The translations under genes were made by a program, and so were the position numbers. From an uncultured delta proteobacterium (GTDB lineage: Bacteria > Myxococcota_A > Polyangia > Polyangiales > Polyangiaceae), in contig CAWJCS010000002.1 of NCBI GenBank assembly GCA_963841435.1, forward strand, positions 352,001 through 416,000: DNA of 64,000 nt, read 5' to 3'. The notes below the pieces were generated by a model. It saw only the letters and a list, made by a program, of their open reading frames with translations. It did not search any database and was not told where the DNA came from. This document shows, one piece after another, positions 38,791 through 63,875 of this stretch; positions within the stretch are counted from its first letter, which is position 1; every line of letters begins with the position of its first letter.

Positions 38791-39189
38791 TCATGGGCAA
38801 CTCCTCGAGCTGACGGCCACTCCGGATGGCGCGATGCTGAACGCGATTTCACCCTTGTGCCCCAATCCATTCGCTTCGAGCACGTAGTGCCGGCCTGGCT
38901 CGAGTTTGGGGCAGCCCGGAAGGCCACTGCCATACGGCCACGTCGCCGCGGGAGTGATGGCCCCTGCGCACAGGCGGCTGGCCCCTCTGCTCCCATCTTG
39001 CCGGCGGATGGAAACGAACTCGACCTTCTCTTCTCCGCGAAGAAAGAGCCCACAGTCCTGGAAGGAGAAGACCAACCCTGAGGGGAATTGCATCACGTCG
39101 ATGCGGAGGTCGCGCGAGCACGCCAGCAAGCCGATGCCAAGTATCGTGACAGCGGGGGTCAACGGATGGACGCGGCGGCCGGCTCCCAT
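38791..39189 (-). CDS. Small lipoprotein, candidate immunity protein for the upstream Rhs C-terminal domain
   Basis: Lipobox LLAC, four further Cys; starts ~30 bp after the Rhs stop with an AGGAG RBS. Confidence 0.6.
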   Translation of the reverse strand: MGAGRRVHPLTPAVTILGIGLLACSRDLRIDVMQFPSGLVFSFQDCGLFLRGEEKVEFVSIRRQDGSRGASRLCAGAITPAATWPYGSGLPGCPKLEPGRHYVLEANGLGHKGEIAFSIAPSGVAVSSRSCP

Positions 39190-39220
39190 GCTTAGTCATC
39201 TCCTCGAGCTTTCTCCGAGT

Positions 39221-42200
39221 CTACCGAGACACCACGAAACGAGCAATCTCGGCAAAAGGGGCCATGCCGCCAGGGCTCTTCACTAGGTCCTGCAAGACAT
39301 AGTCCTCGAACATGTGTGCTTGCTGCTCAACGCCCGCCATTAGGAAGCGCAAGAACATCTCGTGGGGGGCGCTGCTCGCCGCGTACGCGTACGGATCGAT
39401 CCCCAGGAGGGAGCCTCCGATACCCAAAGAAAGACCGTCGGCCGTGACCGAAAGGAAATGCCCGTGGGATCGTTGCCAAACGTGAAACGCCTCGTGGGCG
39501 AGCGTTCCGGCGGCGTTGAGACTCTTGAAATTGACTTCGTTCGCAGCGTTCGACTTCACAAAATAGCTGGGCTTGAGCCAGATCTTCCGGCCGTACGGAT
39601 TCATCCCCACCGCGAACTTGCGCAATGCGGCGGGCATCGCCTCGACGTCGATAGAGTCGTAGTCGAGCGAACCACCATAGTAGCGCTTCAGAAACGCCCG
39701 CTCGTTCGCCGTGAGCGGACGCTTTCCATCTGCGTCCACATGATTGATCGGGTCGTTCCCACAGTACGCGTACACGTTCGTGTCCCCAGCCCCGAACCCG
39801 ATCGGATCCTTCGAAAGCCAGCGTCCGAGCGCGCCCGAGTAGTCTCGCGCGCCGAAGCGGGTGTAGCCGGTGTAAGCGTCGTCGAGGCCGCCCGCGAAAC
39901 CGAAGGGCTGGAAACCGGGGTTGGTGTCGCCCGTGACGTGGCCGAAGGCGTCGTAGTCGAGCTTTTGTTCGACGACGCCGGTCTGGGCGTTGACGACGAG
40001 GCGCACGCTGCCGACGTGGTCCTTGATGACGCGGTAAGGGACGCCGGCGCGCAGGATGTAGTCGGGGGCGCCGCCGATGGCGTCGTCGGCGTAGATGAAG
40101 TGCATGAAGATGCCGGCAGAGTTGACCTGGCCGACGGGACGCAGGCCGTCGCGATAGACCCACGCAGCGTCGAACTTACCGTCCACCTGGCGGGCGACGC
40201 GGCGGCCGAGGCCGTCCACCTTGTAGCTGATGACTCGCGTCGTACCCGAGCGGTTCTGCGTGACGGACAGGAGGTTGCCGAGCGCGTCGTAGACGAGCTC
40301 GTTGGCGTCGTCGCCGTCGCTCATGCGCAAGAGGTCGCCCTGCGGAGTTGCCTCGACGTCGGTGCTACCGAAGCGCGTCAGGCGATCCTGAGCATCGTAG
40401 TCGGCGTCGGCGACGAGGGCGCCATCGACGCTCACCGAAGTGCGGTTGCCGTTCGCGTCGTAGTCGTACTCCGTCGTGGTGCCGTTGACCGTCTCCTTCA
40501 CCAGCCGGCCGAGCTCGTCGTAGTCGTAGTCGATGCCGCGCTCGCCGTTGCCGATGATTTCGTCGATGTGCGTGATGCGGCCCAGTGCGTCACGCTCGAG
40601 CTTCTCGGTGAAGTTGACGTTGCCCTGGAAGGCCGCACGCAGACGCGACGGCTCGCCAAAACCATTGTAGTCGGTGGCCGTGGTCACCGTGCCGAGCGTC
40701 GTGTTCGTGATGAACCCGCTCTTCGCGTCACGCTCGATTTGGTACGTGACGTTGTTGGCGGTGGCCGAGGTCACGAGGCCGTCGTCGTCGTACGTGAACT
40801 TCGCCGTGCTCGAGCCGTTGACGGTCATCGAGGCGAGGAAGAAATTCTCGTCGTACTTGGCGGTGACGCTGCCGTCGATGGCGCCTGACCAGGTGCTGCC
40901 CGTCCAGAGTGGCCCGTCGTGGCTCAGCGTGACTTTCACGCTGTCCGAGCGATTGACGGACGTGAGCATGCCGCCCGAGTCGTAGCCATAGCTGATGGTC
41001 GCGTCGGGGATCTCGAGCGACTTCAAGCGGCCGCTCGCGTCGTCGTAGTGAAAGTCGAGGTTTTGACCGTCGGAGCGCGCGATCTGCAAGAGCTGCCGGT
41101 CGTCGTTGTAGTCGTAGCGGGCGCCGCCCACGGGCAGGTCGTTCTTGCCCGACCCGGAAACGGCCGGGGGCGTGCTGAGCTCGAGCAGGCTCGTCTTGGG
41201 CTGGTACGCGAAGGTGTGCGCGCCGCGGCCCGGAGGCGTGAGCGACAGGAGATTGTCGTCGTCGTCGTAGTCGAACGTGACCGCTTCGTCGTCGGGGCGG
41301 AGCAGCGACTGGATGCGCCCCACGAGATCCGACTCGTACTTCACGCGGTTCCCTTCAGGGTCTTCGCGCTGGGTTAGAAAGCCGTTGGCGTCGTATTCAT
41401 AGGCGACGCGGCGGACGTTGCCGTCGGCGCTCGCTGTCGTCTCGATGAGGCGCCCGAGCTCGTCGTACTCGAAGTGCAGCGACGGCAGCCCCGCCGCGAC
41501 GACGTTCGGTGCGGCGGCCGCGCTCGTCGAGCGTCGTCGTTCTCTGCCGGCCCACCGGCGTCGTCGTCGTGATGCTCCGATCGTCACGCAGGTAGAGCGT
41601 CTCGAACAACCGACCGTTCACGTCGGTGAGCTCGTCCCATTCCTCGACCGACAGCGCATTTTTGATGTCCGTCAGGCGCTTGCCGCGCATCTGGGCAACC
41701 TCGAGCGTGGAGCCGCTCGGAAGCTTGGTGGTGACGGTGCCGGGGTAGAGGGCCTGAGCGCCAAAGGCGGGGTCAGGGAGCAGCAGCGCGGTGGTCGTGC
41801 TGCCGTCAGCGCTTTTGAGCGTCCGGCTGATGGCCGTGTCGTCCCAGCGCACGATGCTGCTGTCGGGCAGATGGACCACGCGCTCGAGCGTCCCGCCGAG
41901 CCCTGCGACGAAATCGTAGGTCGTCTGGCGGCCGGCAGCGGTGGTGACCGAAACGCTCGTGCCGCCTTCGATCGCAACGCGCTCCAGGGTTTCCGTGTAG
42001 CCCGTCGGGTCGGTCGTGCTCGTGAGCGCGCCGTCCACGTACACCGCGTTGGTGATGCCACCGAGCGGGTCGGTGACTTTGGAAATTAGATCCGCGTCGT
42101 ACTCGAACGCGGTATCCCGACCGAGCGGGTCCGTGACTTTGTCGATACGGCCGCGATCGTCGAGCGTGACTTTGGTTTCTTGCAGGAAGGGCCCCTTGAA

Positions 42201-45200
42201 GCCCGTCAGATTGCCGCTCGGGTCGCGGTCGACCAGCGTGACCTGGCCGTTCTTGTCCTTGAGCGTCTCGAGGTGACCTTGCTCGTCGTAGCCGAGCTCG
42301 AGCTCGGTGACGCCGGTCACGGCATCGATGGTCGCCTCGTGCCGCCCGCGCTCGTCGAAGCGGAACAGTGTGGTGCCGTCGGTCGAGGGGACCAGCGACT
42401 GATCCGCTGACAGATCGGGCAAGCCGGGCGCGACCTTGAAGACGCTTTCACGCGTGGCCACGAACAGCGCGCCGTCGCGCCCCACGGCGATGCCGTCCGG
42501 CTCGGTGATGCGCACCTTCTCGGCGAGCTGCCCTTCCTCGAGGCTGGCGTCGCCTCCACCCATGACGGTCTGGATCAAGCCCTCGGTCGTGACCCGGCGG
42601 ATGCGATCGTTCCATTGATCGGCGATGTAGAGCGAGCCGTCTTCCGACAGAGCGAGGCCGCGCGGGCCGTTGAGCTCGGCGTTCTGGGCGCTGCCTCCGT
42701 CACCGGAGAAGCCGGGCGTGCCGGTGCCGGCGACCGTCAGGATGATGCCGCCTGGCGTCACCTTGCGGACGCGGTGGCCGCCTTCCTCTCCGTCGACGCC
42801 GCGCTCGGAGATGTACACCGTGCCGTCGGGGGCCGCGACGACAGCGCTCGGCTCGACGAGCGTCGCCTCGCGCGCCGGCAAACCGTCCCCGCCTTCACCG
42901 CCACCTGCGAACACTTCGAGCACGCCGCCCTCGAAGCGAAACACGCGATCGATGTCGACGATGTAAAGCTCCTCCCGCGGCCCGAGGGCGAGCCCGTCTA
43001 CCTTCGCGAGGTCCGCCACGGCCACCGGATTGTCCGAGGCGGGACCGACGAGCGTGCTGACGGCTCCGCCCGGTGCGATGGCGCGCACGGCCTTCTTGCC
43101 GAAATCCGACACGATGATGGTGCCGTCGTCCTTGACCACGACCCCCTGGGGCGAGCCGAGCACGAGGTCGCCCGCCTCGCCGCTCGCTCCGGCGCCGGCC
43201 ACGACCGTCGTCACTCCCTCGGGGTCGATGCGCAAAATCCTGCCCTGCGGGTCGAGTGAGTCCTCTTGGTCGTCAGTGACGATCAGGCTGCCGTCGGGCG
43301 CGACGCCGATTCCGTCCGGCGTGCCGAGGTCTTCTTGATTGCTCGGGCGCGTGACGACGAGGGCCACGTTCTGCGCGGTGCGAAGGTCGCCCGTGCCGAA
43401 GAAGATGGTCTGGCTCGCCGGATCGTAGGCGTGCAAAACGTCGAGACCGAAGCCGCCGAGCGCGTAGCCCTTCGCATCCCAGACGCCGATGGGTACTTCC
43501 TGCACCTGGGACAGCACGGCGTCGCCGATCGGCGTCGTCTCCTCTGTGGTCCCGGGAATGCCGAAGCCTTCGCCCGCCGCGACTTCGCCGTCGAAGACGA
43601 AGCCGGTGACGACGCGCGCGATCTGCGGCCCCTGAACGAGCCGCCCGAAGCCGTCCTTGCCGTCCCACGACACGACCCGTTTCAGGTTCGGCTCGGGCGC
43701 GAGGGTCTCCTCGAGCGTCTGACCCGCGACCTCGACGACGGAGATCACCTGCTTTAGCCCCGCGGGAACGTCGTCCGAAAGCAACGGTAGCTCGAGCTGG
43801 AAACCGGGCCCGTAGCTCGTGGTGCGGTCGGATTGATAGTGAAGGGAATAGGGTGTCCCGGCGATCGGCACCGCTTGCGACAGCGCTTGCGGCTCGACCA
43901 CGGCGGCGCCGCGACGGGTCGGTTCGTCGAGGACGCGCGTCGCGATGCCCTGGACGTTCGGGGCGATCGCATCCGGGGGCGCCTCGACCGGGAACAGCAT
44001 GTCCCACGAGGAGAAGTGGTTGACGCGCGAGCGCCAGAGCGTCGCGCCCTTCTGGTAGCGGGCGCCGAGCGCGGCGCGTTCGTCTTCGGTCACGCCGGCG
44101 TCGAGCGCGGCGCTCGCAGCGTCCTCGGCGCCGTCGCCGTCGAGATCGAGGACGGCCTTGCCGTTGACGATGTCCAGGACCTCGATGACGCGGCCCGTGT
44201 TGCCGTGCTGCCACTGGCTCTGCTTCTTTTCGTAGTAGCCGAGCGGGACGGAAGAGCCGACGGGTAGGTCGAGGAAGTTCTCGACGTAGACGCTGACCGG
44301 GGTGGAAAGCGCGACGCTCGTGGCGCCAAGCGCGTCGGCCTCCGCGACATCGATCGAGAGGCCGTAGCTCAGCCCACCGGAGACCGGGAGCGTGCCGGGA
44401 GCGAAGCGGGCGGTCGAGACCCAGTTTTCGGCCGTCGGCGGCTCGAAGGGGTACTCGGTGACGCGCAGCGACGCGGCGTCGAGCTTCTTCTGGTCACCGC
44501 CGGGAAGCCGCGCCGTGAGCGTCGTCCCCGGGCGGAACACGAGAAAGGGCTGGCGGGCCCCGAACGCGTCGTCGATCGGGTCGCCGACGGCGGTCTGGGT
44601 CCCGGTGCTGCCGGAACGCACGGACGAGAGGTGCTCGCTCGCCGCGATCATGCCGACCTCGGGGAGCCGGTCGTAGCGCTGCCAGCCGGGCAGGGCGCTC
44701 CGCTCGACGCTCAGGTAGCCCCCGCGCTCGTAGCGGAACACGAGACGCCCGCCGCCATTCACCGCCAGGTCGAACAGGCCGTCGGGGCGCGATTCGGTGT
44801 AGCCGTACTCGTCGTGTCCCACCACCGAGACGCGCACGCCGGCGAGGGCCTCGCCGGCGCGATCCACGATTTTACCACGCACGATGGCCACGCGGCGCCG
44901 GTCGAACGCCGAGGGTTTCGCATCCTTTTGCAGTGGGTCCGCGCCGGAACAAAGAAACGTGGCTGCGAGGTCCACCGTGGTTGCCACCGAGCGATCGAGC
45001 GCGGGGGCGAGGCCACAAAAAGGCGTGGTCAGCCGGCAGTCGAGATCGTCGCAGTCGGCGCGGCCATCGTGATCATCGTCGGCGCCGTTGTCGCAGGCGG
45101 TTTCCGTAGCGCCAGGCTCGGCGGAAGGACCGGCACCATGGGGCGCCTTTTCGCCGCCGCAAGCGGCGACGAGCAAGAAGAGCAGGCACAGGGAAGCCCG

Positions 45201-45221
45201 AGGGCGAGGGGGGAGCGTCAT
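39221..45221 (-). CDS. Teneurin-like Rhs/YD-repeat lipoprotein (~2000 aa) with C-terminal HEXXH domain; +1 frameshift near 41515
   Basis: Lipobox VAAC; Cys/Asp motif; GYTESRPDGLFDLAVNGG; FN-plug-like region; NHL repeats; YD repeats; core PFGFAGG...RFGARDY...GRWLSKDPIG...DPINHVDADG; HEAFH. Confidence 0.9.
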
Positions 45222-45326
45222 GCCAGCCGATCGGGCGCGCGAAAACGCTCGTTGCAACAAAGTGCGTCGGGCGCGAAAACAATCGAAGCGCAACGAGCGG
45301 GGCGCGGCGACCGAAGGGACCAGGTG

Positions 45327-45509
45327 ATGTCCCGGTGGTCCTTTGGTTCGGGTGGTTTCCACGACGAACGAGGCAGCGTCAGTGTGGAGTACGCGGTGCT
45401 GCTCTGCGTCGTGGCGATTGTTTGCGCCTTCGCCGTCGCCGCTCTCGGTGCCCCGCTCGTCACGGCCTACGAGGGCCGCGTGACCCTGCTGCTGCTGCCT
45501 TTCCCCTGA
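45327..45509 (+). CDS. flp: Flp-like pilin
   Basis: DERG|SVSVEY followed by a hydrophobic helix; 60 aa. Confidence 0.75.
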   Translation: MSRWSFGSGGFHDERGSVSVEYAVLLCVVAIVCAFAVAALGAPLVTAYEGRVTLLLLPFP

Positions 45510-45625
45510 GCGCTGCAAGCGACCGGAGAATCTTGCAACGGCCGAAATGGCCCGACCGAAGGGGAGGGGAAACGGGAGCGGGGCCGCCCGGACGGTCTTG
45601 TCCCGCAAAAGGAGCAATCGAAGCC

Positions 45626-45850
45626 ATGAAACGACTCATCAAGAACATCAAGCGCTTCACCGGAGGCCACGTGGTCGTCGCGGACGAGCGAGGGCTCTCG
45701 ACGGTGGAGTACGTCATCATCCTCGTGCTGCTCGCCGTGATGGCCATCGTGACGTGGCGCAGCTTCGGCGACGCCATCAAGGGTCAGGTCAACAGCGCAA
45801 CGAACGACATCAACGATCTTCGTTCGGGTGATTCCGCTCCGAGTCAGTAG
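45626..45850 (+). CDS. flp: Flp family type IV pilin, probably the major pilin
   Basis: DERG|LSTVEYVIIL Flp motif; AAGGAG RBS. Confidence 0.92.
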   Translation: MKRLIKNIKRFTGGHVVVADERGLSTVEYVIILVLLAVMAIVTWRSFGDAIKGQVNSATNDINDLRSGDSAPSQ

Positions 45851-45873: not shown

Positions 45874-46428
45874 ATGGCCCCTTCCCTGATCGTCGACTCC
45901 GCCTCGCTTCTCGTGGGAGGCGTGGGCGCGGTCTGGGACGCCCGTTCCGGGCGCATCCCCAACCGCCTCACGCTCCCCGCGGGGGCCCTGGCCATCGTGC
46001 TTCACGTGGCGCTCGGCGGACTTTCAGAGGGCGTGGAGAGCATCCTCGGGCTGTTGCTCGCCGGGCTCTTGCCGTTCGTGCTTTCGAAAGCCACCCGTGG
46101 CCGCGCCATCGGTGGCGGCGACGTGAAGCTGTTCGCGGCGCTCGGCGCCCTCGAGGGGCCACTCGTCGGGCTCCAAATAGAGCTCTGTGCCTGCATTTTG
46201 CTCAGCACGTTCGCGCTCTTGCGCCTGGCCTTCGCGGGAAAGCTCCTTCGAGTGCTCGGCAACGCCCTCCGCTTGTTCGCCAACCCGCTCCTGCCGGCGC
46301 GCTTTCGAAAGCCCCTTTCGCCCGAGGCGCTCACCGAGCTTCGCATGGGCCCGGCGATTCTCGGCGCGGTCTTTTACGCGTGCTTCGCCAACCAGCTGGC
46401 ACGGTGGGTGCCGTGGCTCGCACTCTGA
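45874..46428 (+). CDS. cpaA: Prepilin peptidase A24 (CpaA/TadV)
   Basis: WDARSGRIPNRL and GGGDVKL catalytic Asp motifs. Confidence 0.92.
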   Translation: MAPSLIVDSASLLVGGVGAVWDARSGRIPNRLTLPAGALAIVLHVALGGLSEGVESILGLLLAGLLPFVLSKATRGRAIGGGDVKLFAALGALEGPLVGLQIELCACILLSTFALLRLAFAGKLLRVLGNALRLFANPLLPARFRKPLSPEALTELRMGPAILGAVFYACFANQLARWVPWLAL

Positions 46429-46442: not shown

Positions 46443-47358
46443 GTGCGCTACGGCGCACGCTCGGTGGCGGCCACGGGTCGCGACGAGCGTGGCGTCGTGT
46501 ACCTCGAGTTCTTGCTCGCGTTCATGCCGGTGTTCGTGCTGTTCCTCGCCGTGTGCCAGCTCTCGCTGCTCTACACGGGAGCGCTCGTGGTCCGGCATGC
46601 TGCCTACGCGGCCGCGCGCTCCGCCATCGTCGTGCTCGAGGACGACCCGGCGCGCTACGAACAGGTGCCGCGCGGCATGCTCACGACCGAGCCCCCCGCG
46701 CCCGGCACCGGGCCGGCGTCGCTACTCGCCACCCTGGGCCTTGCCACGGGCGCGAACCCGGCGGCGCTCGCGCAGCAGGCCATCTCGTCGGTCGAACAAG
46801 CCGCGGCGGGGAGCTCGAACGACCACGATTTTCCGCCTCAGCAGGGCGCCCGCATGGTGACGATCCGCACGGCCGCCTACCTCTCGCTCATCACCCTCGC
46901 GCCCAAGGCCCCGCCCGCGGGCTCCCGCAACGATACGCTGAGAGCCAGCATCTCGCAGGATTTCTTCGCGGATCTCGGCCTCGGCCCTCGCGTACACGGA
47001 CGCCGCGGCCGTCGTCACGCTGCACGTCGGCGGCACCGAGGCGCTGGCGGCGGAGCCCATCCCGCTCGACGCCCCCGTCACCGCGAGAGTCACGTACCTC
47101 TACACCTGCAAGGTTCCCATCGTTCGCGCGCTCATCTGCCGCACGCTCGCCTCCCTTTTGCCCGCGGGTGACGAAGGGCAGCCTGGAAATGGTGACGAGC
47201 CCACGCCGGCGCAGGCGCTCGCCGACCGCCTTCGCCTCGCGGAGCGTCCAAGCTGGCTCACGATCGTGATGGAGCCCGGCGCGCGCGTCAGCGTGATCGA
47301 CGCTGCGGTGACGCTGCCGAACCAGGGCGCTCACTACGAGCACACGGAGGGCGGATGA
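46443..47358 (+). CDS. TadE-like minor pilin; +1 frameshift near 46980
   Basis: DERG|VVYLEFLL...VRHAAYAAARSA; removing one C continues as ALAYTDAA...VTYLYTCKVP to the stop overlapping the next ATG. Confidence 0.8.
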
Positions 47359-49172
47359 CCCGCCACGAAACCCGGCTCGACGAGCGCGGCGCGATGGCGC
47401 TGGTCACGGTCTTCTTCGCCGTCTTCGCCGTGGGCATGCTGTACGCGTTCGTGGGCAGCGTCGAAGCGGTGTTGTTTCGCGAGCGCATGCAGGATGCCGT
47501 CGACTCTGCGGCGCTCTCGGGCGCCGTGATGCACGCGCGGAGCATGAACTTCATCGTGCTCGTCAACATGGTGATGGCCGCGCTGCTCGCGATCCTCATC
47601 GCCATCAAGCTCGCCGAGACGCTGGCCATCATCGGGATGATCATCGCCGCGGTGCTCGCCTGGCCGACGTTCGGCGCGAGCCTCGCCGCCATCCCCGTGC
47701 TCAAGCCCGTGCAGGAAGCGTTGCACGACGCGTACGACTCGCTAAAGGGGCCCGTCGACACCGCGCTCGAGGGCCTGCACACGCTCTCGAGCGCCGTCCA
47801 GGCGGGCGCCGTCGTCGCTGCCGAGCTCCAGGCGCAAAGTGATCTCGAGAAGCACTGGAAGCCTCCCGTGAAATTCGGCGCGGTGATCGGGCGCGTCGAG
47901 CTCACGCTGCCGCTCGAGGACGACTCCTTCGGCGTGCTGTGCGAGCACGGCGGCGAAACGGCCGCGGAGCTCGCACTGTTGCCGCTCGATCCGGTGTTCG
48001 ATGCCGTCCCACCGTTCGCCAAGGCGAAAGGCGCGCTGGTGTCCGCCACCGGGGAGATGACCGGCGCCATGCAGAGCTGGTTCTGCGGGGGAAGCAACGA
48101 CCACGCCCCCACGTTCGAGCGCACGGTCGAGCGCGCCTATCCGCGCTTCGCGGCGAACGACCTTTGCGAGGACACGAACGCGCCGCCCGAGGAGTCGGCA
48201 GACGCCTGCAGCGAGGCCAGCCGGTTCGACGAGGACTCGACGCCCGACAAGGACACGGGAAAGTGTCGAGCTGGGACGAATTGCTCGATCGGCGGGCCGT
48301 ACGAGCAGCGCGTCGCCGCGGCTCGCGTCCAGTGCGACCCGCAAACGCAGCCCACGCCGTTCTTCTACTGGTATCAGCTCCGACAGGGTCACGTTCGCTA
48401 CCTCTGGAACGTCAACCACTGGGAGCGGCAGGAGCCGACCTACGACCCTCCCACCGTCTACCCGCCCGATCTCGAGCATGCGCCGTCGACGACGCGCCCT
48501 CCCTGCGGCCCGCCCCGCACCAACCGCGTTTACGCCGACGGCTACAACGTGACCGTTCGTCGCGCCAGCGACGTGAACGAGGTGCTGCCGGTGTGCAGCA
48601 CCGAGCAGCCGCCGCTCGCTGCTCCGTTGATCACCCGAGGAACCGACCCGGACGAGCCCATCTATTCGGCGCCGATCACCTTCACGGAGGTCACGCACAT
48701 CCTGGGCTGCAAGAAGAACGTGCAGGTGTCGCTCGGCGGCGGGGACGACACGCCGCCCCAGAGCGACGGCGACTCGCGCTCACCCAAGCGCGTGCTCGCC
48801 GGGGTCGATCTCGGGGCGGAGGATTTCCAAATCCGCGGCTTCGTGGTCGGCGATTTCGACGCGGGCAGCGCGTCACGGCTGGTCCGACTGTCGCTCTTCG
48901 GGCGACGTGCACCGGAACAGCCGCTCGGTGAGCTCAGAGCGCTCGGCAACGTCGCGGTGGCTCAGACCGAATACTTCTACGACGGCGCGGAGGGTCGTGA
49001 CGCTTGGATGTGGAACATGAAATGGCGCGCGCGTCTCAAGCGCTTCAAGGTGCCCGAGTCGGGCGCGCTCGACGGGTTGACGGGCGCCTGCGGCGCGGGA
49101 GAAGGGGGCGAGACGGGCTGCGGCGCGCTCGGCGACGTGCTCGGGCGGCTGGGCGATCTGATCGCGCATTGA
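47355..49172 (+). CDS. Large TadG-like minor pilin with a Cys-rich insert
   Basis: DERG|AMALV, MQDAVDSAALSGA...ARSMN, C-terminal MWNMKWRARL. Confidence 0.8.
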   Translation: MTRHETRLDERGAMALVTVFFAVFAVGMLYAFVGSVEAVLFRERMQDAVDSAALSGAVMHARSMNFIVLVNMVMAALLAILIAIKLAETLAIIGMIIAAVLAWPTFGASLAAIPVLKPVQEALHDAYDSLKGPVDTALEGLHTLSSAVQAGAVVAAELQAQSDLEKHWKPPVKFGAVIGRVELTLPLEDDSFGVLCEHGGETAAELALLPLDPVFDAVPPFAKAKGALVSATGEMTGAMQSWFCGGSNDHAPTFERTVERAYPRFAANDLCEDTNAPPEESADACSEASRFDEDSTPDKDTGKCRAGTNCSIGGPYEQRVAAARVQCDPQTQPTPFFYWYQLRQGHVRYLWNVNHWERQEPTYDPPTVYPPDLEHAPSTTRPPCGPPRTNRVYADGYNVTVRRASDVNEVLPVCSTEQPPLAAPLITRGTDPDEPIYSAPITFTEVTHILGCKKNVQVSLGGGDDTPPQSDGDSRSPKRVLAGVDLGAEDFQIRGFVVGDFDAGSASRLVRLSLFGRRAPEQPLGELRALGNVAVAQTEYFYDGAEGRDAWMWNMKWRARLKRFKVPESGALDGLTGACGAGEGGETGCGALGDVLGRLGDLIAH

Positions 49173-55177: not shown

Positions 55178-55178
55178 G

Positions 55179-56093
55179 GTGAGCGTGACGATCACGTTGA
55201 CCGAGCTTCGCATCCTGTTCGTGGCCCTCGCCGCCGGCAGCGTCGTTTCGCCCGTCTACCTGCTCGCGCGCAGCCGGCTGCCGCCGCCGCCGCGTTTCGG
55301 CAGGCGCGGGGCCGCACGTGAGCGTGCTCGCCGGACCAGCGCGTCTTTTTCGCTGGCTGACCCGGCGCTGAGGTTCGCGGCCGGCCTGCTCTCCAAGCTG
55401 CCGATCCCCCGGCTCGAAGCGGCGCTCGAGACCGAGCTCCGGCGCGCGGACTACCCGCTCGGCCTCACGGCGCACGAGTACGCGGCCCTCTCTCTGTTCT
55501 CGGCGGTGCTGCTCGGCGGGCTGACACTCGGCCTCGCGCTGACGATGGGAAGCTCGCCCGCGGTCGCCGTGCCCGCGGTGGCCTTCGGCCTGCTCCTGCC
55601 CAAGCTTCAGATCCAGGAAATCACTCGCGCCCGGGTGAAGGAGATCACGCGCGGGCTACCCCACGCGATCGAGATCGCGGCGCTCTGCATGGGGGCCGGA
55701 GCGGACTTTCCGGGCGCTCTTCGCCTGCTCGTGGGCGCCGACGACGACGCGACGCGCGGCGCGCTCAACCGAGAGCTGTCGCTCATCCTCGAGGAGCTCG
55801 AGCTCGGTCACACGCGACGCGAAGCACTGCTCGACTTCGCGGAGCGCGTCCCGACGCCCGCGGTACGCGACTTCGTCAGCGCAGTGATTCAGGCGGAGGA
55901 GAAGGGCAACCCGCTCGCCAAAGTGATCCAGATCCAGGGGCGCATGCTCAACCAGCGTCGCAGCGTCGCAGCCGAAGAAGCCGCTGCTCGCGCCGGGGTG
56001 CTGATGATCGCGCCGCTCATGCTCTTGCTCGTCGCCATCCTCCTCATCTTGATGGGGCCATTCATCGCGACCTCCGGAGGGCTATCACCGTGA
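55179..56093 (+). CDS. tadC: TadC-like inner-membrane platform protein
   Basis: LPHAIEIAALCMGAG, LGHTRREAL, IQAEEKG, AEEAAARA...PL. Confidence 0.9.
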   Translation: MSVTITLTELRILFVALAAGSVVSPVYLLARSRLPPPPRFGRRGAARERARRTSASFSLADPALRFAAGLLSKLPIPRLEAALETELRRADYPLGLTAHEYAALSLFSAVLLGGLTLGLALTMGSSPAVAVPAVAFGLLLPKLQIQEITRARVKEITRGLPHAIEIAALCMGAGADFPGALRLLVGADDDATRGALNRELSLILEELELGHTRREALLDFAERVPTPAVRDFVSAVIQAEEKGNPLAKVIQIQGRMLNQRRSVAAEEAAARAGVLMIAPLMLLLVAILLILMGPFIATSGGLSP

Positions 56094-56926
56094 CTCATTG
56101 GGTGGACGTTCACAGGCCGGGCGCCGCCGCCGAGCGGTTCGCCCTCGAAGGTACGCTCGTTTTCATCGTCGAGGATGGCGAGGGTAGGCTCGTGCCGCGC
56201 GACGACGCCTCGGGCCGCCCCGGCATCGAGCTGGTTCCGGGAAGCGCCGGCGTGAAAATCGCGGTGCGACGGGGCTTTCCAGGTCGAGCTCGGGCACACG
56301 GCGCGGAGGTGCAGCAAACGCTGCTCGCCTGGGGCGACGATCTGTTCGTGGACGACGTGCGCCTCGCGTTCCTTCAGCGCGCCAAAGGCGGAAGCCGAGT
56401 GTTCGTGCTCGTCGCGACGGTGCTCGCGGGCGCCACGGTGGTCCTCGGCGCGCTCCGCGAACCGAGCGCGCGCGGTAGAGCGAACGATCCGAAGCCACCC
56501 CCGCTCGCCGCGGCCGAAAAGAGCTGCACTGCGTCCGGCGAGGCCGCGGAAGCCCGCGCGCGCGAAGCCGAACGACGCGCGGACGCCAAGCGCGCGCGCT
56601 ATCCATTCGATCCGAGCGACGGCGTGGAGACGCTCCCCCTGCTCGAGGAGGCCGCCTCGTGCTTCCGCGCGGCGGGTCGCATCGAAGACGCGCGGCGCTC
56701 GCGCGCGGCGCTCGACACGTGGCGCGAGCGCCTCGACGGCGACTACGCCTCGCTCAGGCTCGCTCTGCGCGGTGCGTTGGCGGAAAACCGCAGCAACGCA
56801 GCCCTCGAGGCGGTGCGCGATCTGGAGAGCCTCTTGTCCGGGAGGCGCGACGATCCCTACTTCGAGTGGCTGGAAAGCAAGCGCCGTGAGCTCGAGCGGA
56901 CGCTCGCACGCTCGTCGAAGCGCTAG
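56090..56926 (+). CDS. Bitopic protein with degenerate FHA-like N-terminus and helical C-terminal domain
   Basis: GTGA-coupled to tadC; LAWGDDLFVDDVRLAF resembles an FHA C-terminus; one TM. Confidence 0.6.
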   Translation: MTHWVDVHRPGAAAERFALEGTLVFIVEDGEGRLVPRDDASGRPGIELVPGSAGVKIAVRRGFPGRARAHGAEVQQTLLAWGDDLFVDDVRLAFLQRAKGGSRVFVLVATVLAGATVVLGALREPSARGRANDPKPPPLAAAEKSCTASGEAAEARAREAERRADAKRARYPFDPSDGVETLPLLEEAASCFRAAGRIEDARRSRAALDTWRERLDGDYASLRLALRGALAENRSNAALEAVRDLESLLSGRRDDPYFEWLESKRRELERTLARSSKR

Positions 56927-57029
56927 CGGGAGCGCGGCGCGCGGCGGGCAGCGGGCAGCGGGCAGGGCGCGCTCCGCGAGCTCTGGTTTCGTCGAAGCCT
57001 CGGCGGGTACCGCGCGTCGCGTCTCGCGA

Positions 57030-57180
57030 AACGCCCGCGGGGCGCGTCGTGTGCAGCGCCTTCTGCGGAACGCCCGCGGGGCGCGTCGTGCGCAGCGCCT
57101 TCTGCGGAACGCCCGCGGGGCGCGTCGTGCGGAACGCCTTCTGCGGAACGCCCGCGGGGCGCGTCGTGCGGAACGCCCGC
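57030..57180. repeat. 39-bp tandem repeat (~3.8 copies) containing the hairpin CGCCC-GCG-GGGCG, REP-like
   Basis: Units begin at 57030, 57069, 57108 and 57147: AACGCCCGCGGGGCGCGTCGTGCGCAGCGCCTTCTGCGG with minor variants. Confidence 0.9.
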
Positions 57181-57290
57181 AGCGTGCGTCTTGCGCAGCG
57201 CGTCTTGCGCAGCGCGCGCAGCGTGCGGGCGCTCACGCGTTCTCGATGTGGTCCGTGTCTGGGGAGCGTGCGGAGGGGCCGCCGCATGAG

Positions 57291-57319
57291 TTGCTAAATT
57301 ATAAGAACCAGGGTATCAT
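57291..57319 (+). promoter_or_regulatory. Sigma70-like promoter TTGCTA-N17-TATCAT for the transposase gene
   Basis: AT-rich island, 17-bp spacer, ends 15 bp before the ORF. Confidence 0.6.
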
Positions 57320-57334
57320 GTAGCCTTATTCAAG

Positions 57335-58115
57335 TTGGCTCCCGCTCGCCACCGTCGCTACGCAAGCCAACCCCAGCCACGCTCGGGGTCGCGCCAATTA
57401 CTCCTCCCTTTCGAGTCGAGCTGGGGAGGCGCGCGCAAGGGTGCCGGCCGCAAGCCGGGCCCCCACCCGCGCACGCCGCATCGCGCGCGCCCGAAGCACT
57501 ACTTCGGTCACCCCGTGCACGTCACGTTGCGGGCTCGCTTGGGCTCGCTGCGCAGCCAGGCCCTCTTTCCGACGGTGCGCCTCGCCATTTCGCGGGCCAC
57601 ACGCCAGGCGCCGGAGCGCTTTCGCATCATCCACTTCTCGGTGCAGTCCAACCACCTGCACCTGCTCGTCGAGGCTGGCGAGCGGCGCGCCCTCACGGCC
57701 GGCGTGCACGGGCTCGCCATCCGCATCACCCGCTACGTCAACGACCTCTTGATGCGCCGCGGGTCGCTCTGGGCCGACCGGTGGCACGGGCGCGCCCTGA
57801 AAGCACCCCGAGAAGCGCGGAAATGCCCTCGTCTACGTGCTTTCGAATTTTCGGAAGCATGCGTCGCGCTCCGTGCCGGCGGGGGTGGATCCGTGCTCAT
57901 CGGGCGTGTGGTTCCACGGCTGGCACGGTGTCGGTAGAGGGCCCCCGCCGCTTTTCGGGAGAGCGCCGCTCGGACGGCACGGCGAAGAGGTGCCCGTCTC
58001 GCAGCCGCGCACCTGGCTGTTGCGCGAAGGGTTCCTCAAAGCCGGGCGCGTGAGGTTCCACGAGGCCCCGCGAGGCTCCCCTCGCGAAACCCCGAAAGCC
58101 TCCGCTCCGCCCTAA
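57335..58115 (+). mobile_element. REP-associated tyrosine transposase-like (RAYT, Y1 HUH) gene; +1 frameshift near 57822
   Basis: WGGARKGAGRKP, PVHVTLR, FSVQSNHLHLLVEA (HUH), LWADRWH; removing one A gives EARNALVYVLSNFRKH with the catalytic Tyr. Confidence 0.85.
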
Positions 58116-58141: not shown

Positions 58142-58383
58142 CGCCGGGGCGCAAACGAGGCCGAGGATTTTTTGAGGCGACCGCCGTCCCTCGCCGAAAC
58201 GCCGCCGTGCCGCGCCGTTCCACCGAAGGTCCGGAAATGGGCGGCGTCAAAGGCCCGCCGCTGCGCACCCTGGCGCTGCATGGGGCGCTGCACGGGTAGG
58301 TCACGAGGGCGCCCTCGGCGCGCTGGGCGGCTTTGCGCGGGAAGAAACCTGCAACGACGCCGGCGTGGGGCCGATGGGAGGGC

Positions 58384-59043
58384 GTGCCTGCGAACGCAAC
58401 CACCCGCTCGCCCCGCGTTCTCCTTGTGGCCACCGCGCTCTTCGCGTGCCTGGTCTGCTCGGCCTGCGGCGCAAGGGGTCCCGAGGATGCCGCCAGCGTG
58501 GGCGCCCACGACGGGGCGCCGAGCGCGACATGGCTCGCCGCGGAAGGCGAGCGGGCGGCGCTCCGCGGCGACACGGTGCGCGCCGAGCAGTACCTCGCCC
58601 TCGCGGTCGAGCGCGGGTACGACGAGCGCCGCGCTCTTCCCCTGCTGCTCTCGGTTTGCATCAGAGGGTCGCGGCTGCGCTCCGCCCTGAACCACGCCGA
58701 GCCCTACCTGCGCGATCACCCCGACGATCAATCGCTCCGCTACCTGGTCGCCACGCTCGACGTGAGCCTCGGCGACGAAGCGGGCGCACGGCGGGAGCTC
58801 GAGGCGCTTTTACGGGGCGACCCTGCCCACGGGGCCGCCCTCTACCTGCTCGGTACCCTGGAGCTCGACCGCGAGCCCGAGCGGGCAGCGGATCTGTTCC
58901 GGAGCTACCTCGAGAAGGAGCCGGACGGTCCGCACGCCGCTGACGTACGCGAACAACTGCGTGACCTCGACCTCGAGCGAGCGCACGCCACGACGCAGCG
59001 AAGCGCGCTCGCGGCGCGGGCAGCCAAGCGGGGCTTCCGATGA
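58384..59043 (+). CDS. TPR lipoprotein (TadD/pilotin-like position)
   Basis: GGGAGG RBS; lipobox CSAC; RAEQYL, TPR-like helices, YLEKEPDGPHA. Confidence 0.75.
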   Translation: MPANATTRSPRVLLVATALFACLVCSACGARGPEDAASVGAHDGAPSATWLAAEGERAALRGDTVRAEQYLALAVERGYDERRALPLLLSVCIRGSRLRSALNHAEPYLRDHPDDQSLRYLVATLDVSLGDEAGARRELEALLRGDPAHGAALYLLGTLELDREPERAADLFRSYLEKEPDGPHAADVREQLRDLDLERAHATTQRSALAARAAKRGFR

Positions 59044-60161
59044 TTCCGACGAGCGTGTACTCGTCGTCGATCCGCACGTTCTTGGCGCCCGTTGCCGAGC
59101 TCCTCGACGACGCGAGCGTCACCGAGATTTTGGTGAACGGGCCGGATAGCGTGTTCGTCGAGCGGAAGGGGCGCCTCGCGCGTACGGAGGTACGGTTTCG
59201 CTCCGCGGATCAGTTGCTCTCGGCGCTCAGGGTCGTCGCGCAGTACGTCGGACGCCCGCTCGACGAGCATCACCCCATCCTGGAAGCGCGCCTGCCCGAT
59301 GGTTCGCGCTTGGAAGCGGTGCTCGCGCCCATCGCCTCACCGGGCCCCTCGCTGTCGATTCGCCGTTTCTCCAAGGACAAGCTCACGTTGGAGCGACTTT
59401 TGGAGCACGGTGCGCTCACGTCGGATGCGACCGAGACGCTGCGCGTGCTCATCGAGTGCAAGCAGAACGTCGTCGTCGCCGGGGGCACCGGGTCGGGGAA
59501 GACGTCGCTTTTGAACGCGCTCTCCTCGCTGATTCCACGCGACGAGCGCGTGATCGTGATCGAGGATGCGCGCGAGCTCGCTCTGCAGCGCGAGCACGTC
59601 GTGCAGCTCGAAACCCGCGCGCCGGACGCTCGCGGGCAAAACGCCGTCACCGTCCGGGATCTGTTCAAGGCGTCGCTCAGGATGCGCCCCGATCGCATCG
59701 TGCTCGGCGAGATCCGGGGGGGCGAGGCACTCGACCTCGTCCAGGCGATGACGAGCGGGCATGGCGGCTGTCTGGCCACCGTTCACGCCACATTTCCCAT
59801 CGACACCTTGAACCGGCTCGAGACGCTCGCCCTGATGGGGGGCGTCGATTTGCCGCTGGCCGCGCTGCGGGCGCAGCTCGCGTCCGCGGTCGACATCGTG
59901 GTTCAGACGGCTCGCTTGCGGGACGGACGGCGCATGGTGACGCACGTGACCGAAGTCGTCGGCACGGACCCGGTGCGGGGCTACCGCATCAAGGATCTCT
60001 TCGTGGCCGTGCCAGGCGAAACTGCGTCGGGGGCCAGCGGACCGATGGAGCTCGTTGCGACGGGTGTGCTGCCCGACTGTCTGCCGATGCTCAGAGCCCA
60101 CGGCGCGGATCTGCCGCGAGCGGTGCTCGACCACGCGCGGCGTGCCCGTGACGCTGCTTGA
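59040..60161 (+). CDS. cpaF: Second, short CpaF/TadA-family ATPase
   Basis: VTEILVNG, GGTGSGKTS, IEDARE, RMRPDRIVLGEIRG, SGHGGCLATVHA. Confidence 0.93.
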   Translation: MIPTSVYSSSIRTFLAPVAELLDDASVTEILVNGPDSVFVERKGRLARTEVRFRSADQLLSALRVVAQYVGRPLDEHHPILEARLPDGSRLEAVLAPIASPGPSLSIRRFSKDKLTLERLLEHGALTSDATETLRVLIECKQNVVVAGGTGSGKTSLLNALSSLIPRDERVIVIEDARELALQREHVVQLETRAPDARGQNAVTVRDLFKASLRMRPDRIVLGEIRGGEALDLVQAMTSGHGGCLATVHATFPIDTLNRLETLALMGGVDLPLAALRAQLASAVDIVVQTARLRDGRRMVTHVTEVVGTDPVRGYRIKDLFVAVPGETASGASGPMELVATGVLPDCLPMLRAHGADLPRAVLDHARRARDAA

Positions 60162-60174: not shown

Positions 60175-61833
60175 ATGCTAGACGATCAGCGAGTATCGAG
60201 GATCTTGGGCATGGAGCTTGCTACTCGTCGCGGCTCGCTCAGGCTCTGGTTTCGCCCCGGCGACGACCGCGCTTTCGTGGTCGGCAACTGTGCCGGCGCC
60301 GACCTGCGCCTGACGAGCGCCAGCGCCGGCGCGGTGGCGTTCCATCTGGAGCGACGAGGTGCGCGAGTCGAGCTCTTTCCCGGCGATGCCTCGCGCGAAA
60401 TCTACGTCGATGCCGGACGCGTGACCCGACCGGTGCTGCTCCGGCAGACCTCGGTCATCGACGTCGGCGAGGATCGAATCGTCGCCACGACTTTCGACGC
60501 GACCGAGCTCGCCCAGACCGTGACGTTTCCGCGCGCAGGTGCCGAGCGCGACCGCGTCACCGCGCCGCAACGCGAGAGCGACCCAACCCGACTCGGCCTG
60601 CCGGCCCCCGAGCTCGCCGGGCCCGTGACCGACGCGCTGCCCACCGTCGCCTATGCGCCGGGCCGAACGCGCGAGCCGGCGCCCTCGCCTGAGCCCCCGC
60701 GCTGGGAACGCACGGAGCCGCTGAACTTCGCCGAGCGCCCGGTCGTGCGGGAGCCGCTGGGACCGACGGGCACGCAGATCGTCAGCGCTGCGGAGCTCAA
60801 CCCACCCAGGGCTCCGGCGCCCGAGCCGCGACCCGACGCGGTCGAGCGAAGCGAAACGCCGGCGCCCCCGACTCCCGCGCCCGAAGCGGACCCGGACGGC
60901 GTCGCTCTCACTCGAAAGCGCGACGCTGCTTCCGAGCCGCCTGCGCCGAAGCAAGCGACGATCGCCGATGAGCCGGCGCAACGCAGCGCACCCTCGGCGG
61001 CCTCGCCGCCGGCTCACGTCGACAAGGCGCCGGAGCGGCGCCGCAAGGACATCGGCCGCGCCACCACGGCGCTCGATGTGCGAGCGCTCGCACCGCCGAT
61101 GGTTGAAAAGGCGCCCGCGCGGCCGGCGACACGGCGCCCGAGCCCAGCTGTCGAGCAGCCCACGCTCGTGTCCCCTCCGGCGCGGGGCGCCGGCTTTTTG
61201 GGCGCGTTAGGGCGCTTCGCGCGGGGGCTCGCCACAGCCGGCAAGCGCTCACCCGCGGAGAATCTGGCGGCGGTCGGACGCGTCGCACGAAAGCGACCGC
61301 TCGTCGTCTTCACGGTTTCGATCATGCTCGCGTGTGGTGGTGCGGTGGCTCTGACGGCGCTGTCGCGACTCGGACCGAGGAGCGCCCCTCGCACGCCGCA
61401 GCCGCCACTTCACTCGCAAGTCGCGCGCCCCGCCGGCGACGCGAGCGCCAGAGCTTCCGGCGCGCTACGCCCCGCGCCGCTCGGCGGCCCGCGCACCGCG
61501 ATCTCCGGGAGCGCACCACCCGCGGCGAGCGAAAGCCCCCCGCCCCCGACCAGCGCCGTCCCCGAGCTCTCGATCCGCGCACCGGCGCCCGCTGCCGAGC
61601 CTTTCGCATCGCCGGCGCCCGCCGGGGCCGATCCGGACGTCGCGGCCGCCATCGACGCGCTCGTCGCTGGTCGCGATGCCGAGGCCCGCCTCGCGTATGC
61701 ACGCCTCGCGTCGCGCCCGGGTGCAAACCCCGCCTACGCCGCGCTCGCCGCGCTGCTCACGCGTGCCGCGGGCGACGTGTGCCAGGGAGCCGCCGCCGAG
61801 GACCACCCGTTCTGCCCGGAGGTGAAGCGATGA
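60175..61833 (+). CDS. Degenerate FHA-like domain, Pro-rich linker, TM and short helical C-terminus
   Basis: FVVGNCAGADLRL...FHLER...IDVGEDRI; TM LVVFTVSIMLACGGAVALTAL. Confidence 0.65.
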   Translation: MLDDQRVSRILGMELATRRGSLRLWFRPGDDRAFVVGNCAGADLRLTSASAGAVAFHLERRGARVELFPGDASREIYVDAGRVTRPVLLRQTSVIDVGEDRIVATTFDATELAQTVTFPRAGAERDRVTAPQRESDPTRLGLPAPELAGPVTDALPTVAYAPGRTREPAPSPEPPRWERTEPLNFAERPVVREPLGPTGTQIVSAAELNPPRAPAPEPRPDAVERSETPAPPTPAPEADPDGVALTRKRDAASEPPAPKQATIADEPAQRSAPSAASPPAHVDKAPERRRKDIGRATTALDVRALAPPMVEKAPARPATRRPSPAVEQPTLVSPPARGAGFLGALGRFARGLATAGKRSPAENLAAVGRVARKRPLVVFTVSIMLACGGAVALTALSRLGPRSAPRTPQPPLHSQVARPAGDASARASGALRPAPLGGPRTAISGSAPPAASESPPPPTSAVPELSIRAPAPAAEPFASPAPAGADPDVAAAIDALVAGRDAEARLAYARLASRPGANPAYAALAALLTRAAGDVCQGAAAEDHPFCPEVKR

Positions 61834-62504
61834 GAATGCTGCGTGTGCTCGTGCTGGTTTTGGTCACGACCGCTTGCCACCGCGCGCCACCGCCCGAACG
61901 TCCGCGGTTCGCGGTTGCGGTTCGGCTCACCGTGGACGGCCACGAGCCCTTGCCGGGCGCGATCATCCTCAGGGACGAACAACCCTTCGGCGTCACGGAT
62001 GCGGAGGGTCGCGTGCTCTCGACGATTGGCGCCGTGGAAGGTCAGAACGTCAAGCTCAGGGCCCGCTGCCCCGCAGGGTTCGTCGATGGCAAGGTCGAAG
62101 CGTCCGTGCGGCTCGCGCTGACGAGGCGCGTCGAAAGCCGCGCTCCGGAAGCGCAGAAGGTGGAGCTCACCTGCAAGAAGCTCACCCGCGCCGCGGTGCT
62201 GGTCGTCCGTGCGCCGGGGGGTGGCACCCTACCGGTGCGAGTCAACGGACAGCCGGCCGTTACCACCGACGCGGCCGGCAACGCCCATGTGCTGATGGAA
62301 GTGCGCCGCGACCTTGGAGCCGTCGAGGTCGAGATCGACACGAGCGACAAGAAGCACCTCGTGCCCAGAACCCCGCGTCGGCTCTTTGCGCTCGACGGCA
62401 GGGACGCCGTGCTCGTGCTCGAGCAAAGCTTCTCCGTTCACAACCGACAGAAGGCGCCCGCCACGCCCGCTCCCCAGCGGCACGTCCCCACGAGAATCGA
62501 CTGA
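61830..62504 (+). CDS. Lipoprotein with carboxypeptidase-regulatory/PEGA-like beta domains
   Basis: ATGA-coupled; lipobox TTAC; EPLPGA...GVTDAEG and VRVNG...TTDAAGNA repeats. Confidence 0.7.
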   Translation: MRMLRVLVLVLVTTACHRAPPPERPRFAVAVRLTVDGHEPLPGAIILRDEQPFGVTDAEGRVLSTIGAVEGQNVKLRARCPAGFVDGKVEASVRLALTRRVESRAPEAQKVELTCKKLTRAAVLVVRAPGGGTLPVRVNGQPAVTTDAAGNAHVLMEVRRDLGAVEVEIDTSDKKHLVPRTPRRLFALDGRDAVLVLEQSFSVHNRQKAPATPAPQRHVPTRID

Positions 62505-62509
62505 GCCGC

Positions 62510-62833: not shown

Positions 62834-62846
62834 GCTGGATGCCGTC

Positions 62847-63119
62847 ATGAGCGCTCAGGGAAGCTCGGGAGCTCTCGATCGAGCCGGGAACGGCGGCAGC
62901 GCCGCGCTCGAACGGCTACGCCGCGGCGAGATCACGCTGGACGCGTACCTCGATTTTCGTGCAGACGAGAGCGTCAAGGCGCTCTCAGGCTCCATCCCGG
63001 AGGAGCGGCTCGAGATGATCCGTCTTGCCATGCGCGAACAGCTCGCCACCGATCCGGTGCTGCTCGCGATGGTGGAGGCCGTGACCGGCGGCAAGCCCGA
63101 GGCGAATCCGGCGCGCTGA
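62847..63119 (+). CDS. Small hypothetical protein (QLxxDP paralogue 2)
   Basis: ALERLRRGEITLDAYLD...ERLEMIRLAMREQLATDPVLLAMVEAV. Confidence 0.7.
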   Translation: MSAQGSSGALDRAGNGGSAALERLRRGEITLDAYLDFRADESVKALSGSIPEERLEMIRLAMREQLATDPVLLAMVEAVTGGKPEANPAR

Positions 63120-63134
63120 AACGAGGGGGCTGGC

Positions 63135-63875
63135 TTGACTGACCGAGCGCCGACACCGCTGAGACCTCGCGCACCGGGTGTGGAGGACCCAGCGGAAGTG
63201 CTCGCCAGATTCCACGAGCACCTCGAGCTCGTGAACATCATCGCGGCGCAGGTGCGCCGGAGCGTCGGCCCGTCCGCCGATCGCGACGACCTCGTTGCCA
63301 ATGGGCGCGAAGGCTTGCTCGAAGCCGCGCGGCGCTACGACGCGACCCGGGGCGTCCCCTTCAAGCTCTACGCCAACTACCGGGTGCGCGGAGCCATGAT
63401 CGACGGCGTCCGGAAGTCCGCCGCGCTGCCGCGCCGCACCTACGAACGCCTCGTCGCGCTCCAGGCGTCGAGCGCGGTGAGCGAAGGTGAGCTCGAGCAT
63501 TCCGGCGTTGCGAAGTGGTTGCCGACGGACGTTGCCGAAGCCGAGGATCTCTTGGCCGAGCACCTTTCGGGCATGGCGGCGGCCGCTGCTCTCGCCACGC
63601 TGACGGGCCGCGGCTACGACGGCGACGCTCGCACCGAGCCCGGAGCGTCCGTTTCGCCCGAAGAAGAGCTGTCGCGCGCGGAGCTCATCGCCCGGGTGAA
63701 GCAAGCCGTCGAGGAGCTGTCGCCGGAGGCTGCGGCCGTCGTGAGGCGACACTATCTCGAAGGCGAGCGGCTCGAAGACATCGCGCGCGACTACGAGATG
63801 AGCAAATCGTGGGCGAGCCGCCTGCTCACGCGTACCACCGCTCGGCTCGCGAAACGCCTCGCGTCACTCGCCTAG
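63135..63875 (+). CDS. FliA/WhiG-like (sigma-28 group) RNA polymerase sigma factor
   Basis: DDLVANGREGLLEAARRYDATRGVPFKLYANYRVRGAMIDGVR; SPEEEL; region 4 LEDIARDYEMSKSWASRL. Confidence 0.88.
   Translation: MTDRAPTPLRPRAPGVEDPAEVLARFHEHLELVNIIAAQVRRSVGPSADRDDLVANGREGLLEAARRYDATRGVPFKLYANYRVRGAMIDGVRKSAALPRRTYERLVALQASSAVSEGELEHSGVAKWLPTDVAEAEDLLAEHLSGMAAAAALATLTGRGYDGDARTEPGASVSPEEELSRAELIARVKQAVEELSPEAAAVVRRHYLEGERLEDIARDYEMSKSWASRLLTRTTARLAKRLASLA

Follow-up and report, generated by a model that had tools for sequence, protein, structure and literature searches.

Bacterial teneurin-like proteins (TLPs) were defined in 2026 (PMC13018210). According to that paper they have no obvious delivery machinery, and the word 'pilus' is absent from its main text. 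Killing by a Tad-type contact apparatus is described for the Kil system of Myxococcus xanthus, where the tips have been proposed to carry effectors, as TcpB carries TcpF (PMC12075869); 'Rhs' does not occur in the main texts of the Kil papers (PMC8460266, PMC12075869). In Bdellovibrio, FliA drives the Tad operon (PMC5430801). Delivery of TLPs has been left open by the teneurin paper, and the Kil papers do not say which toxins act in contact killing of the Tad type, both as far as the accessible portions of these sources go; the same scope applies to all papers cited here. We analysed a stretch of 64,000 nucleotides (the window) from an uncultured member of the Polyangiaceae, in which a TLP gene stands head-to-head with a Tad pilus locus. 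In many genomes the toxin and the pilus of this module are both preceded by one predicted promoter, which offers a handle on both questions.

The source genome G000 has 7.8 Mb and is 95% complete, with the window on contig C2. The TLP gene starts with an ATG at 45221 on the minus strand and flp1 with an ATG at 45327 on the plus strand, leaving 105 bp between the divergent genes, just as a previous sequence-only reading had placed them. That reading considered adjacency in one genome to be the only evidence for a link. This no longer holds, as the link is kept in 11 genomes of four genera and is accompanied by a shared upstream motif. The linkage of TLP and Tad locus is conserved and restricted to one clade of each. 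We favor, with a probability of about one half, pilus-assisted contact delivery by a likely mobile, co-regulated antagonism module, in which the pilus would make contact and the surface TLP would deliver the toxin.

The TLP and its downstream gene are laid out as follows.

41397..45221, minus strand: TLP 5' piece with lipoprotein signal, acidic disulfide repeat, TTR, TIP-like region, FN-plug, NHL and the start of the YD shell; frame break near 41510
39221..41587, minus strand: TLP 3' piece with YD shell, Rhs protease motif and a tip of about 165 aa containing HExxH...E
38791..39189, minus strand: 132-aa predicted lipoprotein, immunity candidate, 31 bp after the TLP stop

Pfam matches to TTR_TEN1-4, FN-plug, TEN_NHL, RHS and TEN_YD-shell gave the domain series of a TLP, i.e. 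TTR before FN-plug, NHL and the YD-shell superfold, with the FN-plug match being weak (E 0.009). The closest PDB match was the bacterial TLP 9pt5/9ifo (E 1e-206 and 1e-66), which spanned both pieces. Together these bear out the teneurin-like identity proposed from the letters alone, and the lipobox LLVAAC agrees with the lipoprotein signal that the Rhs protein had been said to carry. The Rhs protease motif R-x12-DPIG-x20-DADG is located at about 39730-39850, its second motif reading DADG. Counted from the first Asp, the other self-cleavage residues lie at -13 (R) and +24 (second Asp), which is the spacing of R2103/D2116/D2140 of BiTLP. The Ser of the FN-plug cleavage site is Ala in the window and Ser in 5/8 aligned relatives. 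In the tip that follows the protease motif HEAFH and EQQ are kept in relatives, and by this motif only we read the window tip as a putative zinc protease. Neither the tip nor the downstream lipoprotein matched a family of Pfam or NCBIfam; proteins of similar length included one homologue. Unconfirmed Atlas leads for the pair are eCIS_core on 12% of one cluster and DUF7480 with low recognition.

The reading frame of the TLP is split near 41510 in the window, while relatives are intact with about 1950-2050 aa. In another DNA run a single contig with a depth of 2.3 carries a one-base gap at the frame break, and three further window genes are split as well. Because of the gap, the other split genes and the intact relatives an assembly error is likely, though unproven. 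The same run has a two-base gap at 39391, which we read as probable noise because the window frame stays conserved beyond it.

A comparison of ten relative TLP copies showed a common N-terminus and shell, while tips and downstream genes differ. Pfam matches of the relatives' tips were RNase and peptidase-like, and G010 carries an RNase-barstar pair. The hypervariable C-terminal domain is the predicted toxin.

The Tad locus, assigned by family scan unless another basis is given, comprises the following features.

45327..45509, plus strand: Flp pilin 1
45626..45850, plus strand: Flp pilin 2
45874..46428, plus strand: prepilin peptidase (CpaA/TadV)
46443..47358, plus strand: TadE-like minor pilin, split near 47160
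47355..49172, plus strand: TadG-like minor pilin of 605 aa with a cysteine-rich C-terminal part
49183..49683, plus strand: TadE-like minor pilin 2
49671..50630, plus strand: conserved unknown protein of the Tad locus, kept in relatives
50726..51484, plus strand: CpaB/RcpC
51481..52683, plus strand: short secretin with pilus N-terminal domain and secretin domain, no BON match
52680..54320, plus strand: FHA-fused CpaF/TadA ATPase (family scan and tree)
54317..56093, plus strand: TadB and TadC
56090..56926, plus strand: predicted membrane protein with degenerate FHA-fold N-terminus (HHalign 98%)
57026..57937, plus strand: 39-bp repeat array and remnant of a REP-associated tyrosine transposase, an insertion outside the system
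58333..59043, plus strand: TPR protein with predicted lipobox, probably TadD-like
59040..60161, plus strand: second CpaF-like ATPase without FHA (family scan and tree)
60175..61833, plus strand: proline-rich predicted membrane protein with degenerate FHA-fold N-terminus (HHalign 89%)
61836..62504, plus strand: conserved predicted lipoprotein closing the locus, kept in relatives, with lipobox

This was the only Tad locus found in the genome. Two Flp pilins, peptidase, two TadE, a TadG-like pilin, CpaB, secretin, two CpaF, TadB, TadC and a TPR protein are present, so the claim of a full assembly set was right; among the locus proteins scanned there was no TadZ/CpaE gene. The pilin matches in Pfam were below the curated cut-offs, and prepilin motifs were present. 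The two CpaF paralogues fall in separate clades. A PDB sequence search with the TadG-like pilin was without match. The REP-transposase remnant at 57335-57937 interrupts the locus. Calling the locus FHA-rich was correct in part: there is one canonical FHA domain, in CpaF, accompanied by two degenerate FHA-fold domains (56090, 60175) and no more canonical ones. Likewise the extent of the system, read as 38791 to 63875, has to be widened, as the unit runs from about 29.7 kb to just beyond the window end and includes kinase and PEGA genes.

The FHA-fused ATPase, the short secretin and the TadE/TadE/TadG trio are as in Kil, and the genome contains scattered type III export-like genes. If the locus were a Kil-type predation machine with the TLP as its prey-killing effector, one ATPase and a secretin with a BON domain should be seen. 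Instead there are two ATPases and no BON match, and the variability of the tips and the immunity-like genes next to them are in keeping with conflict between relatives, which makes such a machine very improbable. Equating the locus with Kil, which the first inspection had brought in for comparison, also fails on its layout as one contiguous, unsplit locus; we rejected membership in the Kil system on these three grounds, while noting that the FHA-fused ATPase does match.

Linkage was examined in a survey of 383 family genomes; the unpublished genome G276 is counted only in the 383-genome tallies. Three TLP candidates were scored per genome, with 68 weaker matches unlisted, and the TadG-like subtype was called at E<=1e-50, which yielded 42/383 genomes. 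A TLP clade set apart at an identity of at least 47% comprised 24 matches in 17 genomes. All 17 belong to the 42 genomes with the TadG subtype, with G010 as a fragmented eighteenth. For 13 Tad loci, from 11 genomes and four genera, a clade TLP lies on the same contig, and 11 of these loci are head-to-head with it (G000, G004 twice, G015 twice, G008, G010, G086, G281, G270 and, with a 10-kb gap, G096). The remaining pairs are in tandem in G278 and 26 kb apart in G266. In G281 a toxin cassette is inserted between flp1 and flp2, and in G094 the head-to-head partner of a clade TLP is an isolated Flp gene outside the main Tad locus. A Flp-type prepilin with a long Pro/Ser/Gly-rich tail faces a clade TLP at L064:7638-8165.

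Outside the clade no linkage was seen. None of the 59 more distant TLP loci had Tad genes (79 collection loci; 35 with at least 8 kb upstream). In metagenomes the divergent pair was present at 2/9 clade loci (4 of 9 with at least 7 kb upstream), and Tad genes at 0/12 non-clade TLP loci. The linked TLPs all fall in one clade (26/87, support 1.0; one fragment excluded). The linked Tad loci do so too, with support by the SH-like approximate likelihood ratio test (SH-aLRT) of 99 in a quick ATPase tree and a support of 0.90 in a five-gene tree, neither of which includes a named Kil sequence. In GTDB the linked Tad clade consists of 24 loci in 22 genomes: 13 are linked, 6 have a TLP on another contig and for 5 none was found. 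TLP and Tad distances over the 13 pairs correlate with a Mantel rho of 0.43 (p 0.006), a partial co-divergence. Furthermore, clade TLPs lack long N-terminal extensions; the distance from anchor to match is 72-165 nt in 21/22 rows vs a median of 834 nt in the others. In genus g1 other species have core-type Tad loci and G270 carries both Tad types, which suggests transfer.

Mere chance adjacency in one genome might appeal to Tad loci being common in the order and to the window TLP being broken as assembled. It is contradicted by the twelve further same-contig cases, the clade specificity and the shared motif, and we rejected it as having next to no probability.

The shared motif was found de novo in 45 pilin upstream regions, from which the window was excluded. 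It consists of two boxes, ATTT..GCAA-N14/15-..CCGA(T/C). The -10 element recognized by sigma-28 has the consensus GCCGATAA, and the right box of the motif resembles it. At a match threshold of 14 bits the motif preceded 16/22 clade-TLP rows (15/21 distinct) in a held-out test, 0/50 other TLPs, the start sites of these distant TLPs being less certain, and 46/6382 genes of G000. Upstream regions of clade TLPs beat dinucleotide shuffles (p<=0.05) in 22/25 cases, some of which are near-identical copies. Held-out cpaB upstream regions had the motif in 15/18 cases, while the inner operon genes secretin and tadB had it in 0/17 each. Because clade TLPs far from any Tad locus also carry it, the motif is not a by-product of adjacency. 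The sites in the divergent region and the Tad locus are these.

45230..45255, minus strand: motif GCAAC-N16-CCGAT before the TLP, promoter-like; 10.9 bits, p 0.05
45290..45315, plus strand: same motif before flp1, the other half of the divergent pair; weak by matrix, 8.1 bits, p 0.13
45535..45560, plus strand: same motif before flp2 (pattern match)
50655..50680, plus strand: same motif before cpaB (pattern match)

The pattern GCAAC-N16-CCGAW occurs 7 times in the window vs 0.32 expected, and 6/16 of its intergenic genome sites lie on the island; as it was chosen after viewing the window sites, this is a supporting detail and no independent test. Judged by the shared motif, TLP and Tad pilus are likely switched on together.

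Co-regulation is equally the core of another explanation, namely that TLP and Tad locus are passengers of one sigma regulon on one mobile island, which the toxin-immunity pair helps to keep, without either needing the other. The motif is common to kinases, lipoproteins and unlinked Tad loci, the island modules shuffle in order, and integrase, ParB, holin and lysin genes stand beside three loci; moreover, myxobacteria commonly carry toxin-immunity pairs on their mobile elements (PMC10433427). Passengers would hardly account for a head-to-head order kept at about 50% protein identity across four genera, for TLPs that are inserted among pilin genes or face them also at sites outside the main locus, or for the finding that no other examined TLP lineage is near Tad. 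We consider it possible, if on the whole unlikely, that there is no more to the pairing than this.

Contact delivery by pilus and surface TLP may be pictured as follows. One sigma-28-like factor, either the FliA-like sigma of the island or its core paralogue, would transcribe both units with the motif as promoter, and the kinases and FHA domains would tune pilus assembly. The TLP would exit by Sec and signal peptidase II and reach the surface via the T2SS (type II secretion system) of the genome or the Tad secretin. We infer that the two parts are mechanically coupled: the pilus would seize a neighbouring cell and keep it in place, and the surface-anchored TLP would release its variable tip into that cell. 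By analogy with the solved Bacillus TLP the shell would cut off and hold the tip. Targets would be competing relatives without immunity rather than prey in general. For the window tip the zinc-protease-like motif and the lipoprotein partner point to a target in the envelope.

Alternatively, the Tad machine could itself be the export or delivery device of the TLP, by a T2SS-like push through the secretin or by carriage on the TadG-like tip. The tight linkage and shared motif, the large TadG-like pilin without a PDB sequence match, and the absence of VgrG from the genes found in the genome agree with this, and TcpB-TcpF and the effector proposal for Kil tips set a precedent (PMC12075869). On the other hand a T2SS is present, most TLPs have no linked Tad, loci of this Tad architecture are widespread where there is no TLP, and a shell of roughly 2000 residues would be a large cargo. 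We judge such an exporter quite improbable. A broader claim adds to it that share of the contact-delivery explanation in which the pilus is strictly required: the Tad pilus would be a dedicated export or delivery machine, the first route for bacterial teneurin-like toxins, with its own sigma and kinase switch on a mobile island. Even so framed it strikes us as doubtful.

Several observations weigh against pilus-assisted delivery. TLPs occur in 146/383 family genomes, mostly without linked Tad, and the two-ATPase Tad locus is widespread in Polyangiales and beyond, usually without TLP. Unrelated neighbours of the Tad locus in relatives, which the sequence-only reading had named as speaking against the link, were seen in part: 11/24 GTDB loci of the linked clade have no TLP on their stretch, several being short contigs, and none of 40 two-ATPase stretches outside the clade (at most 30 kb each, some short) has a TLP nearby; yet 13 loci are linked. 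Of the 22 genomes of the linked Tad clade, 5 gave no clade TLP. Several clade TLPs have kinases and PEGA genes as neighbours or stand alone, the one detected Tad locus of G153 lies outside the Tad clade despite its clade TLPs, and two G176 TLPs that group with the clade have a long branch and lack the motif. TLP and Tad trees disagree for several pairs. The motif precedes kinases (10/24), a lipoprotein family (6/7) and unlinked-Tad pilins (19/44) and thus marks a wider regulon, and the window's own sites score modestly by the matrix (TLP 10.9, flp1 8.1 bits). The FliA/WhiG-like sigma family is widespread (120/383 genomes, with extra copies beside the island), so that any of several sigma factors may read the motif. 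The genome also has a T2SS. Since two relatives with the window's tip carry another downstream gene, the 132-aa lipoprotein is a candidate immunity gene only. Finally, the genomes are related, and therefore the counts of co-occurrence and linkage and the correlations overstate independence.

The flanks of the two units contain further features of the island.

29717..32441, minus strand: Ser/Thr kinase and TPR-PEGA protein, recurrent island cargo; motif at 32542-32567
32771..34588, plus strand: cysteine-rich predicted lipoprotein, frameshifted; motif at 32735-32760
62847..63119, plus strand: 90-aa protein; in relatives it directly precedes the island sigma or lies close to it
63135..63875, plus strand: FliA/WhiG-like sigma factor, island copy; below the family cut-off

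The last of these is the sigma-28-like gene that had been noticed at the locus end; the match is to FliA/WhiG, and a core paralogue lies on contig C5. The 90-aa protein is near the island sigma in many loci and has a paralogue at G000:C1 230025-230357; as a guess, it might act as an anti-sigma factor. Modules of Ser/Thr kinase and TPR-PEGA genes are met again at G000:C2 416287-418340, G000:C5 1538494-1540864 and G000:C2 1076210-1078927, often behind the same motif. Between the kinase module and the toxin, at 34745-36613, the window has a gene with TPR and glycosyltransferase family 41 (O-GlcNAc transferase-like) matches. Lipoprotein family c22 (L044:17174-18271 and homologues) occurs near clade TLPs with the motif in 6/7 and is a candidate accessory factor.

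No tRNA is in the window, no integrase was noticed among the genes called in or beside it, and a viral contig scan found no relative. Flanking genes of the mobile type (integrase, ParB, holin, lysin) are at the loci of three relatives, while none was noticed beside the window locus. These three cases have in common some 20 conserved genes next to the Tad locus (L194, L196, L197, L037, L038 and L040 on G015:C15, G015:C21 and G008:C450), among them integrase, ParB-like, holin and lysin matches; most of the other genes are without PHROG or Pfam match, and the set is possibly an undescribed small prophage or integrative element.

Elsewhere in G000 there are T2SS and type IVa pilus parts. The remark that VgrG, PAAR and Tc-toxin genes are missing can be extended to the genome for VgrG, of which none was found at 95% completeness; PAAR and Tc were searched only among 30 window proteins. 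A second, more distant TLP in several frames and Rhs fragments lie among transposase-like genes at the ends of contigs (C1 414000-422596 and C3 1532000-1551364). A lone FHA-fused, strongly diverged CpaF-like protein (23% identity) at C6 620002-621741 is without Tad genes in its surroundings. Genes of a type III export gate occur scattered at C6 1570390-1572315 and 1049888-1050922: one FHIPEP match and a protein that looks SctU/FlhB-like.

If pilus-assisted delivery is correct, Tad pili would become a further route for polymorphic toxins, a role would be found for the two-ATPase Tad locus of Polyangiales, and the pilus would be the so-far missing contact partner that helps TLP toxins to reach neighbouring cells. 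If only co-regulation holds, a sigma-28-like contact regulon would be defined in these bacteria.

Compared with the bacterial TLPs of PMC13018210 (PDB 9pt5/9ifo) the window protein has the same TTR, FN-plug, NHL and YD shell, the same Rhs protease spacing, a variable C-terminal tip with a small downstream gene, and a lipoprotein signal as reported for Myxococcota TLPs. It differs from those described there in that its clade is linked to Tad, is minimal at the N-terminus and carries an upstream motif of the pilin type, and by the Ala that replaces the FN-plug site Ser in the window. With Kil (PMC8460266, PMC12075869) the locus shares Tad-type parts, an FHA-fused ATPase, a short secretin, extra FHA and TPR proteins and the minor-pilin trio. 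Kil, however, is described as divided between two clusters, with a single ATPase, a secretin that has a BON domain, and four tips, while the window has a contiguous single locus with two ATPases, two Flp genes, no BON match and a linked TLP. Six Polyangiales genus names are absent from the Kil tree source file of PMC8460266.

The hit/tad system of Bdellovibrio (PMC3818213, PMC5430801) is similar in that Tad genes are co-transcribed with bd0109, a gene with RHS/YD repeats, and the Tad operon is driven by FliA. In contrast, Bd0109 is treated as a pilus regulator rather than a toxin that has a teneurin fold, a variable tip and an immunity gene, and it belongs to the same operon rather than a divergent one. 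The large signal-peptide Rhs toxins that serve kin discrimination in M. xanthus, on the Mx-alpha prophage (PMC10433427), are likewise independent of a type VI secretion system, probably surface-displayed and carried on mobile elements; unlike the TLP they have about 4000 residues and no pilus link in the text available. A link between TLP and Tad is not described in the accessible parts of PMC3482391, PMC11821767 and 2026 preprints. A full-text search that covered few subscription papers did not find the pairing in print, and the supplements of PMC13018210 may show such neighbourhoods. Both the TLP and the Tad locus are of known kinds; what appears new, within that search, is their conserved, motif-sharing pairing.

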